Source: Candidatus Iainarchaeum sp.
Lineage (GTDB): Archaea > Iainarchaeota > Iainarchaeia > Iainarchaeales > CSSED10-239
Direction: 5' to 3'
Assembly: GCA_037441475.1 (NCBI GenBank)
Contig: JBBISB010000002.1
Span: 66,020 to 98,019 of the forward strand
Length of the DNA stretch: 32,000 bases
Under the pieces are notes generated by a model, which searched no databases, was not told the origin of the DNA, and worked only from the letters and a program-made list of their open reading frames with translations. Made by a program: the position numbers and the translations under genes. Every line of letters starts with the position of its first letter. Within the stretch, counting starts at the first letter, position 1. This document shows positions 9,775 to 28,118 of this stretch, piece by piece.

Positions 9775-10017
9775 TTATTTTACATGCACAGTTCTTGTAG
9801 GGAAGGCAAACTCAATCTTTGATTTTTCAAATTCTTTTTTAATTGAAAGATTTATTTTATCTTTAACTATTAGATATTCCTTATAATCAAGAGCTCTTAT
9901 CCAGTAGATGATTCTTATGTTTAAAGAAAAATCTCCAAAAGACTCAAAGACAACATGATAGCTATCTTTTTCTACATTTTCATTTGTATTTAAAATATTA
10001 ATTATTATTTTCTTACC
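9775..10017 (-). other. C-terminal cytoplasmic domain of the MscS channel. It is in the same reading frame as 10018..10842 but cut off by an in-frame TAA.
   Basis: My translation immediately after the TAA at 10020..10018 gives GKKIIINILNTNENVEKDSYHVVFESFGDFSLNIRIIYWIRALDYKEYLIVKDKINLSIKKEFEKSKIEFAFPTRTVHVK, ending at TAA 9777..9775. This is the typical MscS C-terminal pattern (F.dss.n..i.yW, I.F..P). 10018 minus 9775 is 243, which is 81 codons. Confidence 0.8.
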
Positions 10018-10842
10018 TTATTCTAATTTCTTAAGAGAAGTACTATAGATAACACCAATTGTGAAATTTTCTCTTTTTGCTCTTCTTGCAGAAATATTTT
10101 CAACAGCATTAAGAGAAAGGTTTCTGTTTGGAACAACAACTAAGGTGTTATCAAAGAATCTTATCTTTGTAGATCTTATACCAATTTCTTCTACAGTTCC
10201 AAGACCATCTGAGGTTTTTAAAGTATCACCCATCTTAAATGGTTTTTCAACAAATATAACAATTCCTGATATAAAATTTTCTAAAATATCCTTAGAAGCT
10301 AAGGCAACTGCAAGACCACCAATACCAATACCTGCAAGCAAAGCACTTATATTAAATCCAAAGTTTGAGAGAACAACAAGAATAGCTAGGATAAAAAATA
10401 CAACTTTAACTAAGGATTTAAGTAAAGGTATTAATTGGTCATCATACTTTGATTCTGTTTTTTGTGTATGAGGTATTAGGTACTCATCTATGATGTCTAA
10501 AAAAAACTTAATAATAAATAATGTGATTGCTAAGACATAAACAAAGAAAGAAGTGTTCTTAACAGCTGTTACCCACCATTCAGAAACAACTAAATATTTA
10601 AAACCAATGTTAAAGAAAATAGTCACAATTAATATCTTTAAAGGTAGAGGTTTTGATAGAATCTTAGAGATTATATCATCTATCTTGTTTCTTGTATGCT
10701 TTGTTATTTTATTTAAAACATTTTTACTTATAAAAACAACAACTGCACTTACAACAAACCCTAAAAGAATAAAAAATATAAACCACATGAAGTTTTTTAA
10801 GGGATTTTGTAGAAACACAAGATCAAGAATATTGAATAACAT
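10018..10842 (-). CDS. MscS-family small-conductance mechanosensitive channel, N-terminal and pore part, terminated prematurely by TAA
   Basis: 274 aa with several TM helices followed by GIGIGGLAVALASKDILENFISGIVIFVEKPFKMGDTL, the MscS pore-helix and beta-domain signature. The ORF ends inside the conserved region (IGVIYSTSLKKLE*). Confidence 0.85.
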   Translation of the reverse strand: MLFNILDLVFLQNPLKNFMWFIFFILLGFVVSAVVVFISKNVLNKITKHTRNKIDDIISKILSKPLPLKILIVTIFFNIGFKYLVVSEWWVTAVKNTSFFVYVLAITLFIIKFFLDIIDEYLIPHTQKTESKYDDQLIPLLKSLVKVVFFILAILVVLSNFGFNISALLAGIGIGGLAVALASKDILENFISGIVIFVEKPFKMGDTLKTSDGLGTVEEIGIRSTKIRFFDNTLVVVPNRNLSLNAVENISARRAKRENFTIGVIYSTSLKKLE

Positions 10843-11015
10843 TTTAATAACACCTTCTAAAATTTTTATTTATAATACAAAAAAAATAAATATATAAATA
10901 TATTATAAACCAAAATCTTTATATTTATATAGACATATAATATGTATGTAAAATTAACTTTAAGTTATTTACTTCTTTTTATAAATAAATTACAATTAAA
11001 TAAAAACGATTAAAC

Positions 11016-11726
11016 ATGATAGACAAACCAATAGTTGAACTTAAAAACGTCTCTAAGATATACAAGATGGGACTTGTTGAAGTAAAGGCAATAAACGATG
11101 TTTCCTTAAAAATATTTCCAAAAGAATTTGTTGCAATCATGGGAGCGTCTGGTTCTGGAAAATCAACAATGATGCATTTAATTGGTGCACTTGATCTTCC
11201 TACAAAAGGAGAGCTTTCTATTCATAAGCATAAACTTTTAAGCTTTACAGAAGATGAACTTGCATCCTTAAGAGGAAAAACCATTAGTTTTGTTTTTCAA
11301 GACTTTCATTTAATACCTACCCTTACAGCTTTTGAAAATGTTAGACTTCCTATACTCTTCCAAACAAACGAAGATGATGAAGAAACATACAACAGAAGAT
11401 GTGAAGAACTTTTAGATGTTGTTGGTTTAAAAGATAGAATGGACCATAGGCCAGCTGAACTTTCAGGTGGTCAACAACAAAGAGTTGCAATTGCAAGAGC
11501 ACTTGCAAATGATCCTGAAATTATTTTAGGAGATGAACCTACAGGAGCCCTTGACTCTAAGTCCTCTGCTGAGATTATTCAACTTTTAAAAAAACTAAAT
11601 AAATCTGGAAAAACAATAATCATTATTACACATGATATTAATGTTGCAAAAAATGCAAAAAGAATAATTACTTTAAAAGATGGAAAAATAATTGAAGATA
11701 AAATAAACAAACAAGAAAACCCTTAA
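11016..11726 (+). CDS. ABC transporter ATP-binding protein, MacB/LolD-like subfamily
   Basis: Walker A GASGSGKST, Q-loop FVFQDF, signature LSGGQQQRVAIARAL, Walker B IILGDEPTGALD, H-loop ITHD. Confidence 0.92.
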   Translation: MIDKPIVELKNVSKIYKMGLVEVKAINDVSLKIFPKEFVAIMGASGSGKSTMMHLIGALDLPTKGELSIHKHKLLSFTEDELASLRGKTISFVFQDFHLIPTLTAFENVRLPILFQTNEDDEETYNRRCEELLDVVGLKDRMDHRPAELSGGQQQRVAIARALANDPEIILGDEPTGALDSKSSAEIIQLLKKLNKSGKTIIIITHDINVAKNAKRIITLKDGKIIEDKINKQENP

Positions 11727-26416: not shown

Positions 26417-26448
26417 ATATATATATCAACTCCTTATAAAAAAATTAT

Positions 26449-27879
26449 TTAATTTACTAATCCTAATGAATGTCTTATTGCTTTTTCTGGAACATCAGCA
26501 CCTACTATGTCAAAATACATATAATTTTCATTTCTTAAATTATTAAATAAATTATATGTTGTGAACATATTTGAATCAACAGTAGTCCATCCATCTGTTG
26601 AATTATAGAAATACACTGTGTTAAAATAACTAATTTCTGATCTTTCACTTAAAGGACCTTCATTAGATGTTAATAAATCACTTAACATGTAATTTTCATC
26701 CCAAGAAGGTATTTTTTCAAATTGTGATTTAAAAAATTTTCCTCTTTCAAGATTTGTTTTAAAAACATCTCCTGTTGGAAAACTGAAAGAATAGACATAT
26801 GCTACATTTAATGTGTAATTATGAGCATAAGTCATCTCATTACCAGCTTCATCTCTTACTTTTATTGAAATATTGTAATCTCCTGGAATAAAAGTTTGAG
26901 TATATTTAATACTTAAAAAGTTTTGATCACTTAAAGAAAAATTAATATCTTCAATTTTATTAACATCATTTATTGTAAATAATAAAACATTATTTATAAA
27001 TGGTTGATTAAACATCAAATTATCAATAGCTTCAATTGTAATTATATCTTCATTTACATTTAAAGTATTTGTCCATGTTGAAAGTAAAGGTTTAGTTTTA
27101 TCTATTTTTATTAAACCAGATTCTTGTATTTCTTGAACATTTCCTGCATTGTCAATAGTTCTAAACCTTATATAATTATTTCCTTCTACAGATAATAATG
27201 TTGGAGAAGAATAATTTGTATCAGGAGTACAATTATTTGTGTCTGATAAACAATATTCTGTAAAATAAACATTACTTATTGAATCAACTGGAGTAATTGT
27301 ATAATTTACATCTGTTGTATACCAACCATTTGTACCTAGTGTTCCTGAAGTTATAGAACCTGAAGTTGTTGGTTTTGTTTTATCTAATTTTAAAATATTT
27401 GATGCAGTCTTAACTGTTTCTAAGTTTTCTAACTTATCTTCTCCACTGTACTTGATTGTATATTCGCCGTCAGATGAAATAGTAAATTCCCAATCACCTT
27501 CTTCATTTACAAAGGATGAAGCGGTAGTAGGAGCATTACCATCTATAGTGTAATAAACAACATCACAACCTACGCCAATACCATCATCACAAGTAAATGT
27601 AACTGTAACATCACTTGTATTCCAATTAGAAGGAACATTATCTGTTGTTGTTGGAGCATTTCCATCAACATATGTATTTACATTTGTTGGATGGACAACA
27701 GTAAAAATATCTGTCGTCTGAACTAACCAGGTGTATAAACCACCATTAGAACCAGAATTAATATCTAATGTAAAATCTAATTGATTTCCTGAAGTTATAT
27801 AAGCAGTAGAAGTAGTATAAATACATTCTAGTGAACTTGAATTTAAATCCCAATTTGATGGAGCTGAACCACAATTCAA
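26449..27879 (-). CDS. Adhesin-like extracellular protein with repeated Ig-like modules. It lacks its own signal peptide, and the start is an artefactual TTG.
   Basis: 476 aa. Repeated modules are DGNAPTTTDNVPSNWNTSDVTVTFTCDD, DGNAPTTASS, LDKTKPTTSG and IDKTKPLLS, the D.T.P.T / W.N.DV.V.F pattern of Ig-like surface repeats. The M in the track is a TTG at 27879..27877, overlapping the TGA of the upstream ORF. Confidence 0.75.
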   Translation of the reverse strand: MNCGSAPSNWDLNSSSLECIYTTSTAYITSGNQLDFTLDINSGSNGGLYTWLVQTTDIFTVVHPTNVNTYVDGNAPTTTDNVPSNWNTSDVTVTFTCDDGIGVGCDVVYYTIDGNAPTTASSFVNEEGDWEFTISSDGEYTIKYSGEDKLENLETVKTASNILKLDKTKPTTSGSITSGTLGTNGWYTTDVNYTITPVDSISNVYFTEYCLSDTNNCTPDTNYSSPTLLSVEGNNYIRFRTIDNAGNVQEIQESGLIKIDKTKPLLSTWTNTLNVNEDIITIEAIDNLMFNQPFINNVLLFTINDVNKIEDINFSLSDQNFLSIKYTQTFIPGDYNISIKVRDEAGNEMTYAHNYTLNVAYVYSFSFPTGDVFKTNLERGKFFKSQFEKIPSWDENYMLSDLLTSNEGPLSERSEISYFNTVYFYNSTDGWTTVDSNMFTTYNLFNNLRNENYMYFDIVGADVPEKAIRHSLGLVN

Positions 27880-28118
27880 TAAAGAATATCCCCATTATTT
27901 GTAGGACGAGTAATTGAAACTTTATTTATCGAATCGTTTCCATTGTTTAAGACATTAATAGTATACTCATACTCTGTACTTGGTAAAACATATTGAGGAG
28001 TTATAGTTGCTGTATGTGTATGAGCAGCATTTACTAGCCCTATTGTAAAAACCATAAATACTATTATAAAAAACATAAAAAATAAACTTTTAAACTTGTT
28101 CAATCCCATTCTTTTCAC
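27876..28118 (-). CDS. Signal peptide plus first beta-domain fragment, probably the true 5' end of 26449..27879 separated by a frameshift
   Basis: 80 aa: MKRMGLNKFKSLFFMFFIIVFMVFTIGLVNA|AHTHTATITPQYVLPSTEYEYTINVLNNGNDSINKVSITRPTNNGDILY*. This is a signal peptide followed by a CARDB-like strand pattern. The stop TGA overlaps the TTG of the next ORF (TATTGAAT). Confidence 0.65.
   Translation of the reverse strand: MKRMGLNKFKSLFFMFFIIVFMVFTIGLVNAAHTHTATITPQYVLPSTEYEYTINVLNNGNDSINKVSITRPTNNGDILY

Follow-up and report, generated by a model that had tools for sequence, protein, structure and literature searches.

An envelope-only cluster of disrupted genes in an Iainarchaeota genome is probably a local accident of genome-wide gene decay

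Gene disruptions found in a 32,000-nucleotide stretch (the window) of a DPANN archaeal genome (Iainarchaeota; 769 kb, NCBI GCA_964526055.1) are real and recent, recur across the whole genome and track low sequence conservation. They are very probably young pseudogenes that arose by the ordinary decay of weakly constrained genes, and not by a process specific to the cell envelope. Since as many cytoplasmic genes are broken genome-wide, the "surface only" pattern of the window, which a first-pass annotation had proposed as its central observation, appears to be a local accident of this decay.

Every disrupted gene of the window was compared with an intact homologue from G003 (a complete one-contig genome of the same genus), from siblings or from elsewhere. 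Relative to these homologues, each of the four envelope genes previously called as clearly lesioned does carry a lesion, and a detached membrane anchor, listed earlier as a possible lesion, results from a genuine frameshift. The window thus contains six lesions in five envelope genes (MscS, a Cys-rich anchored protein, a COG1361/CARDB protein, an adhesin and the secreted protein separated from its anchor), three of them base substitutions to TAA and three of them frameshifts. None of the 17 cytoplasmic genes has a lesion, and all of them, including the long ones reported as intact, are full length relative to G003 or by Pfam (RSH, LeuRS, methyltransferases, ABC ATPase and YgjP-like, as well as photolyase, DisA, AAA/DUF4143, HAD and decarboxylase). 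Within these limits the observation that only membrane or secreted proteins are hit is correct, with 5 of 13 envelope genes and 0 of 17 cytoplasmic genes broken (Fisher p = 0.009, a post hoc test on one window among about 24).

The MscS-family mechanosensitive channel gene (9778..10842, minus strand) is truncated at residue 274 of 355 by an in-frame TAA (10018-10020) that lies within the C-terminal domain and is spanned by the Pfam MS_channel_3rd match; this codon is GAA (Glu) in relatives, with Glu present in both G003 and a 95%-identical sibling. The COG1361/CARDB envelope protein gene (12965..14210, plus strand), located within a MacB/FtsX-type ABC operon (11016-15487), is split by a 4-bp tandem duplication (GATAGATA, 13067-13074) into a 38-codon signal-peptide ORF (start 12965, stop 13079-13081) and a 382-codon body in a different frame (13062-14210). 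Its homologues in G003 and in the 95%-identical sibling (413 aa) read ...NLNADTYNYNPTPV... in a single frame, and the Logan gene calls at this locus are 38 aa and 382 aa. The gene for a Cys-rich, N-terminally anchored extracytoplasmic protein of no known family (21674..22357, minus strand) ends in TAG and is interrupted in frame by TAA at 22217-22219 and again at 22112-22114, the latter codon aligning with Glu in G003 and with Asp in a sibling.

The other two broken genes lie in a strain-specific island (23600..28380) that comprises an AAA_14/DUF4143 ATPase, the anchored protein and the adhesin; since this island is absent from G003, two of the five broken window genes are accessory. The first of these genes (25240..26416, minus strand) encodes a secreted protein that is anchored in the membrane by its C-terminus; a frameshift near 25496-25512 leaves a 306-aa ORF (25496-26416, minus strand) and a 74-aa anchor ORF (anchor frame 25243-25512, minus strand). 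The 306-aa ORF and the anchor frame are collinear with residues 36-306 and 309-394, respectively, of a 399-aa homologue, and intact homologues range from 384 to 430 aa. The Ig-like/Big_13 adhesin gene (26449..28118, minus strand) lacks one base near 27886-27893, and its 80-aa signal-peptide ORF (27876-28118, minus strand) and 476-aa body (26449-27879, minus strand) are pieces of one gene, with both parts found in one frame in a 675-aa ORF (G055) and in a 1193-aa protein (ENA contig L057).

The genome is a metagenome-assembled scaffold containing 300 N and many of its frameshifts lie near homopolymers, as would be expected if the lesions were sequencing, assembly or consensus artefacts. Nevertheless, this explanation is very unlikely. 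Across window positions 7755 to 29737, and across four further regions that carry cytoplasmic lesions (in GlmS, the PALP enzyme, topoisomerase I and an ABC-2 operon), the Logan assemblies of sequencing runs SRR11582162 and SRR11582163 match the genome at 100% identity. More than 90 kb were compared, including all tested lesions; because the two runs may be the source reads of the genome, this check is independent of the assembler and not of the sample. A literature search for the two accessions returned no match. Truncated pieces of Trm56, GlmS, His-phosphatase, SpoIIM and TopA are recorded in both NCBI and Logan. The GlmS locus is called as a 413-aa ORF in Logan and as 76-aa and 196-aa ORFs in NCBI, a discrepancy of gene calling since the DNA is 100% identical. 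Stops created by substitution and a 4-bp duplication are also atypical of errors, and the lesions concentrate in weakly conserved genes and whole operons instead of scaling with length. The earlier argument against random sequencing error is thus borne out by two independently assembled runs that give the same bases at the lesions. A second earlier suggestion, that the sequence is the consensus of a heterogeneous population, finds no support, since the Logan contigs (which drop rare variants) match the genome completely and no near-identical intact allele is present in the protein collection. Intact alleles do occur in siblings at ≥90-95% identity, both for window genes (MscS, 356 aa; COG1361, 413 aa; Cys-rich protein, 226 aa) and for genes elsewhere (TopA, 719 aa; His_Phos, 192 aa; SpoIIM, 336 aa; ABC-2 permease, 266 aa; ABC ATPase, 331 aa).

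A genome-wide census of genes with a G003 counterpart at ≥40% identity, from which stops close to alignment ends were filtered as artefacts of choosing the most upstream start, identified 38 broken genes among 641, compared with about 4 of 661 when G003 was examined in the reverse direction; coding density is 86.4% versus 91.1% in G003. Localisation, predicted from Kyte-Doolittle hydropathy alone with an outcome stable across thresholds of 1.6-2.2, assigned 22 of the 38 broken genes to the cytoplasm and 16 to the envelope. The broken cytoplasmic genes include those for GlmS, PRPP synthetase (Prs), Trm56, an MnmA-like protein, topoisomerase I (TopA), an ABC ATPase and a PALP enzyme, and Pfam supports the presence of cytoplasmic enzymes in this set. 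Lesions are clustered, with 68 of them falling in 34 genes where a random spread would be expected to affect 62; for example, none of the three genes in one ABC-2 operon is intact, the PALP gene has 11 lesions and TctA at least five. Broken genes are also less conserved than the others (median identity 69% versus 79%, p = 6e-4), which may be partly a consequence of inactivation and not its cause.

These data bear directly on the proposal of a true envelope-directed process, in which relaxed or diversifying selection on the surface of a host-dependent archaeon leads to preferential loss of surface genes. In addition to the window contrast itself, such a process is favored by the raw breakage rates (8.0% of envelope versus 5.0% of cytoplasmic genes, odds ratio 1.64, p = 0.15), by an odds ratio of 2.17 (p = 0.022) at the loosest hydropathy cut-off, and by the occurrence of pilus and adhesin parts among the broken genes (T2SSF, a class III signal pilin and adhesins). 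However, the difference was not significant in a length-weighted test (p = 0.2-0.5) and disappeared when conservation was included in a logistic regression, where the envelope odds ratio was 1.05 (p = 0.90) and that for identity was 0.63 per SD (p = 0.006). Moreover, when labels were permuted genome-wide, 9% of trials yielded a 32-kb window whose broken genes numbered five or more and all belonged to the envelope class, in line with the caveat of the first-pass annotation that the pattern could be chance. The extra candidates lacking a G003 counterpart, still unverified, are also mostly cytoplasmic. Since the census under-samples fast-evolving surface genes, a modest real envelope excess could be hidden. 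Overall, we consider an envelope-directed process unlikely. The claim of envelope-specific disruption is not supported genome-wide, with 22 of 38 broken shared genes cytoplasmic. Relaxed selection, offered earlier as one of its explanations, remains the best cause of the lesions, given that low conservation predicts breakage, but its restriction to the cell surface does not stand once conservation is accounted for. Under ordinary decay, envelope genes supply many of the victims because they are on average less conserved than cytoplasmic genes and often accessory, and all five window hits fall on envelope genes because housekeeping genes (LeuRS, DisA, RSH, photolyase) happen to make up the cytoplasmic set there. 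As no special mechanism acting on surface genes underlies the envelope-only pattern, it should not be pursued as such.

Contingency loci of bacterial surface proteins, such as Neisseria opa and Haemophilus lic, are phase variable through slipped-strand mispairing at simple repeats, and the frameshifts near the 5' ends of surface-protein genes seen here resemble them. If surface antigens were switched on and off reversibly in this way, one would expect frameshifts placed like the three in the window, which lie close to, or immediately downstream of, the signal or anchor segments of surface proteins, and slippage sites like the A/T or G runs of 5-9 bases found near about two thirds of the genome's frameshifts. 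The window frameshift sites, however, speak against phase variation, since none of them is a repeat tract (a two-copy GATA, TT reduced to T and a site without repeats), and the three substitutions to TAA, half of the window lesions, could not be reversed by slippage. Homopolymer frameshifts are also found in cytoplasmic enzymes (Trm56, an MnmA-like protein and a flavodoxin-like protein), the frequency of breakage in cytoplasmic genes is similar, and alternate alleles were seen neither in the protein collection nor in the contigs, which drop rare variants. On/off switching, raised in the earlier reading, is accordingly highly improbable for lesions that consist of base substitutions and of indels at two-copy or non-repeat sites.

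Stop codons are reassigned in NCBI tables 4 and 25 and in TAG-recoded phages, and as in those systems the in-frame stops here occur within otherwise conserved genes. Recoding, either with TAA read as a sense codon or by programmed ribosomal frameshifting, would account for the fact that all three in-frame stops of the window are TAA, two of them aligned with Glu. This is extremely unlikely, since TAA, TAG and TGA all occur as lesions (21, 12 and 5 genome-wide, at aligned residues that are diverse), TAA is the main true stop, terminating 169 of 258 long ORFs including MscS itself, and a search of the genome revealed no suppressor tRNA and no tRNA with a UUA anticodon. Unlike in reassigned codes, the same codons that form lesions end normal genes. 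Every site is occupied in relatives by plain sense codons and unshifted frames, and no conserved shift indicative of programmed frameshifting was found, as relatives encode single unshifted ORFs. A TctA pseudogene whose in-frame stops are all TAG was considered as a case of recoding and rejected because the alignment shows these to be short out-of-frame stretches between paired indels.

Some of the truncated products might retain function, such as TopA without its last zinc ribbon or the anchored protein released in soluble form. The broader possibility that truncated or split products generally remain functional, as split genes or altered forms that are variants instead of dead genes, is nonetheless quite unlikely. 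It is consistent with individual cases (the 306-aa protein would be secreted instead of anchored, MscS would lack its C-terminal domain, and the TopA lesion costs only the last 36 residues) and with conservation downstream of lesions that equals conservation upstream, but very young lesions equally predict high downstream conservation. A published study (PMC11017572), which counts on the same side, argues that bona fide genes are numerous among annotated bacterial pseudogenes. Against it, the COG1361 and adhesin bodies have lost their signal peptides and so cannot be exported, genes elsewhere carry multiple lesions (the PALP gene and TctA), and siblings keep single intact ORFs. Nanoarchaeum equitans, also a DPANN archaeon, has functional split genes encoded as two ORFs. 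In contrast to those, the pieces found here lie side by side, have no start or signal peptide of their own and are not conserved as splits, being due to single recent mutations relative to 95%-identical siblings. When the metabolism or surface of this organism is reconstructed, MscS, GlmS, PRPP synthetase, Trm56, the COG1361 partner of the ABC operon and two adhesin-type genes, among others, should be regarded as probably inactive, and we infer that the broken genes are in general non-functional.

Ordinary decay would thus have produced a genome with an unusually high load of young pseudogenes, in which at least 40 genes would have been inactivated since the split from relatives about 95% identical in protein. 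The mutations include substitutions of the GAA-to-TAA type, a 4-bp duplication and indels of a single base, about two thirds of which lie at short homopolymers, and they would survive under weak purifying selection in poorly conserved, accessory or dispensable genes. The underlying cause is presumably relaxed selection combined with drift in a small-population, host-dependent organism. Pseudogenes also accumulate in host-dependent bacteria undergoing reductive evolution, such as Mycobacterium leprae, Sodalis glossinidius and Serratia symbiotica (cf. PMC7067036, PMC5013485 and PMC11229322). The present genome resembles such bacteria in its many recent nonsense and frameshift lesions in still recognisable genes, in the weakly constrained or dispensable functions and whole operons affected, in a coding density below that of its sibling and in the intact copies kept by close relatives. 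It differs in being that of a DPANN archaeon with no known host and an already tiny genome (0.77 Mb), and in its modest load of about 6% of shared genes and not tens of percent.

We tentatively suggest that the strain is a DPANN archaeon in a burst of gene loss. Its young pseudogenes would number at least 40, roughly tenfold more than in its sibling species, and would include those of adhesins, transporters, components of pili and remnant biosynthetic enzymes (GlmS, PRPP synthetase); this reading is plausible but somewhat less than an even prospect. If true, the burst could reflect a bottleneck that the population passed through recently, or a switch of host or lifestyle, and would offer a rare view of the continued shrinkage of already minimal archaeal genomes. 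A literature search on Forterrea or DPANN pseudogenes returned no directly relevant paper. The approximately tenfold contrast in lesions with the sibling provides a usable natural experiment on DPANN gene loss, and because the lesions are genuine and genome-wide, automatic annotation would miscall about 6% of genes as fragments. Outside the shared set, an intrinsic split-gene search of the approximately 113 genes without a G003 counterpart returned 85 ambiguous adjacent same-strand ORF pairs with start-less open frames; 16 of the stronger-looking pairs, still only candidates and left out of the counts above, are mostly cytoplasmic.

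Five genes of the window, all encoding envelope proteins, carry six lesions (in-frame stops or frameshifts) when each is compared with an intact homolog, as the first-pass annotation had described. The MscS gene (9778-10842, minus strand) contains an in-frame TAA at 10018-10020, within the span of the Pfam C-terminal MscS domain match, at a position that encodes Glu both in G003, a complete sibling genome of the same genus, and in a 95%-identical 356-aa Logan protein. Two TAA codons (22217-22219 and 22112-22114) interrupt the gene for the Cys-rich anchored protein (21674-22357, minus strand), and the COG1361/CARDB gene is split at 13067-13074 by a 4-bp tandem duplication, GATAGATA, where both G003 and a sibling of 413 aa (95% identical) have NLNADTYNYNPTPV in a single frame. 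The adhesin is divided into ORFs of 80 and 476 aa by one base missing near 27886-27893; both parts are collinear and in one frame in a 675-aa ORF of another genome, G055, and in a protein of 1193 aa encoded by ENA contig L057. Finally, the "detached anchor", previously listed as a possible extra lesion, is a real frameshift, with residues 36-306 of a 399-aa homolog matching the 306-aa ORF and residues 309-394 matching the anchor piece in the other frame. Every cytoplasmic gene in the window is full length, in agreement with the earlier description.

The lesions had been argued not to be random error, and this was upheld by exact-protein look-ups that led to Logan contigs, which are separate assemblies of runs SRR11582162 and SRR11582163. 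Across window positions 7755-29737, a stretch covering all six lesions, they match the genome at 100% identity, as they do in four further regions with lesions in cytoplasmic genes. Since contigs from two runs match at the lesions, assembly error as their source is, on this sequence comparison, excluded, and a position-specific sequencing error in both runs is implausible for the substitutions and the 4-bp duplication. Truncated pieces of Trm56, GlmS, histidine phosphatase, SpoIIM and TopA are each recorded in both NCBI and Logan. For the broken GlmS gene (G000, the genome under study, C1:46150-47978; fetched stretch L072:2420-4248), the Logan call is 413 aa and the NCBI calls are 76 and 196 aa despite 100% identical DNA, evidently because gene callers treat TGA differently, a warning for exact-protein look-ups. 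The assembled contigs and protein records gave no support to the view that the lesions reflect a consensus built from a mixed population.

Genome-wide, G000 (769 kb in two contigs, 28% G+C) was compared with G003 (a single contig of 839,632 bp; LeuRS 82% identical to that of the window) using one simple gene caller on both genomes and tblastn in both directions, with end artefacts removed before stops and frame changes were counted. Internal stops or frame changes were found in 34 of 641 shared G000 genes, and four more broken genes, including the window COG1361 gene, emerged when short N- or C-terminal pieces that had been displaced were looked for. The reverse comparison flagged only about 4 of 661 G003 genes, some of them doubtful. 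The pseudogene load of G000 is unusually high for its genus, and its coding density is 86.4%, versus 91.1% in G003. MutS and MutL genes are intact (C1:457800-462200; L076:13462-17753), so this load is not explained by obvious mismatch-repair loss. Lesions are clustered, with 68 falling in 34 genes versus the 62 genes expected under length-random placement. For example, all three genes (ATPase and two permeases) of an ABC-2 transporter operon at C1:91033-93531 (L068:11033-13531) are frameshifted. A 663,107-nt JGI contig from a relative with at least 90% identity carries the same ATPase split elsewhere, into 80 and 258 aa, which suggests parallel loss.

Disruption specific to the envelope, the pattern proposed from the window, is not supported by this census. 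Localization was assigned by the maximum 19-residue hydropathy, for which broken genes form two clean groups (≤1.95 and ≥2.6); at a cutoff of 2.0, 22 of the 38 are cytoplasmic and 16 envelope. By Pfam, the former include an MnmA-like tRNA thiolase, GlmS, histidine phosphatase, an APH-like kinase, an ABC ATPase, a flavodoxin-like reductase, a reverse transcriptase, an SDR-family dehydrogenase, Trm56, topoisomerase I, a PLP enzyme (11 lesions), PRPP synthetase, a nucleotidyltransferase and a metallo-beta-lactamase-fold protein. The latter include PspC, two ABC-2 permeases, a class III signal pilin, T2SSF, SpoIIM, TctA, a DsbA-like protein, MscS and COG1361. Cytoplasmic genes are not spared: 5.0% are broken versus 8.0% of envelope genes (odds ratio 1.64, p = 0.15; length-weighted p = 0.5), and p = 0.02 was obtained only by gene count at the loosest hydropathy cutoff and was not reached with length weighting. 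Broken genes are less conserved relative to G003 (median identity 69% vs 79%, p = 6e-4), as is the envelope class (68% vs 82%). In a logistic model with envelope, identity and length terms, the envelope term disappeared (odds ratio 1.05, p = 0.90) and identity still predicted breakage (odds ratio 0.63 per SD, p = 0.006).

Of the 13 envelope genes in the window, 5 are broken, compared with 0 of its 17 cytoplasmic genes (p = 0.009, by a test picked after seeing the data). The first-pass caveat that this could be chance was well placed: when the envelope and cytoplasmic labels were shuffled among the 40 broken genes that had been verified, 9% of permutations produced a 32-kb window in which five or more genes were broken and every one of them was envelope, and 31% produced one in which all belonged to a single class. 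The remaining 32-kb bins hold mixed or solely cytoplasmic broken genes.

Searches of 90%-identity protein clusters recovered intact sibling alleles of MscS (356 aa, 95% identical), COG1361 (413 aa, 95% identical) and the Cys-rich protein (226 aa) from the window, and of TopA (719 aa), histidine phosphatase (192 aa), SpoIIM (336 aa), an ABC-2 permease (266 aa) and the ABC ATPase (331 aa). Conservation past the window stops equals that before them. Together, these comparisons indicate that the lesions are young and restricted to this strain, and they are best read as the ordinary, recent decay of genes under weak constraint in this DPANN archaeon. For some genes, truncated products may possibly still work.

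Stop-codon recoding, which would make the in-frame stops sense codons, is excluded. All three stops occur as lesions (TAA 21, TAG 12, TGA 5) opposite diverse residues, most long ORFs truly end in TAA (169, versus 57 in TAG and 32 in TGA), as does MscS itself, and ARAGORN found no suppressor tRNA among the 36 tRNAs of G000; the genetic code is standard. Recoding was also rejected for a TctA pseudogene and its small neighbor (C1:491114-492651; L065:16114-17651), in which all six in-frame stops are TAG, since short out-of-frame stretches in the alignment to G003 show that paired indels explain them. Programmed frameshifting is excluded because the ORFs of relatives are unshifted. Phase variation, proposed as on/off switching of surface antigens, is unlikely: repeat tracts are absent from the window frameshift sites, half of the window lesions are substitutions, and homopolymer frameshifts elsewhere in G000 affect cytoplasmic enzymes as well.

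Two of the five broken window genes sit in a 4.8-kb island (23600-28380) that is absent from G003 and comprises an AAA_14/DUF4143 ATPase, the anchored 306+74-aa protein and the adhesin. At this site in G003, 177 bp separate DisA from the next gene. The adhesin and anchored protein are paired again on L057 (1193 and 399 aa). Beside tRNA-Thr (16109-16183), a 2.2-kb segment (16006-18250) contains UPF0175-like and 2'-5' RNA ligase-like genes; the corresponding site in G003 is occupied by another insert, of 12.6 kb (540.5-553.2 kb; L028:500-13200), that encodes a stand-alone Cas1 (Pfam E = 2e-62). This insert is a candidate casposon-like element, and the site a variable hot spot. A third strain-specific segment, 29394-31236, consists of ~600 nt free of ORFs (21% G+C) and an intact Orn/DAP/Arg decarboxylase gene, with no positional counterpart in G003. 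In addition, tandem methyltransferase-like genes at 4260-5853 (271 and 261 aa) are 73% and 50% identical to one and the same G003 gene, and represent a tandem duplication in which one of the copies is diverging fast.
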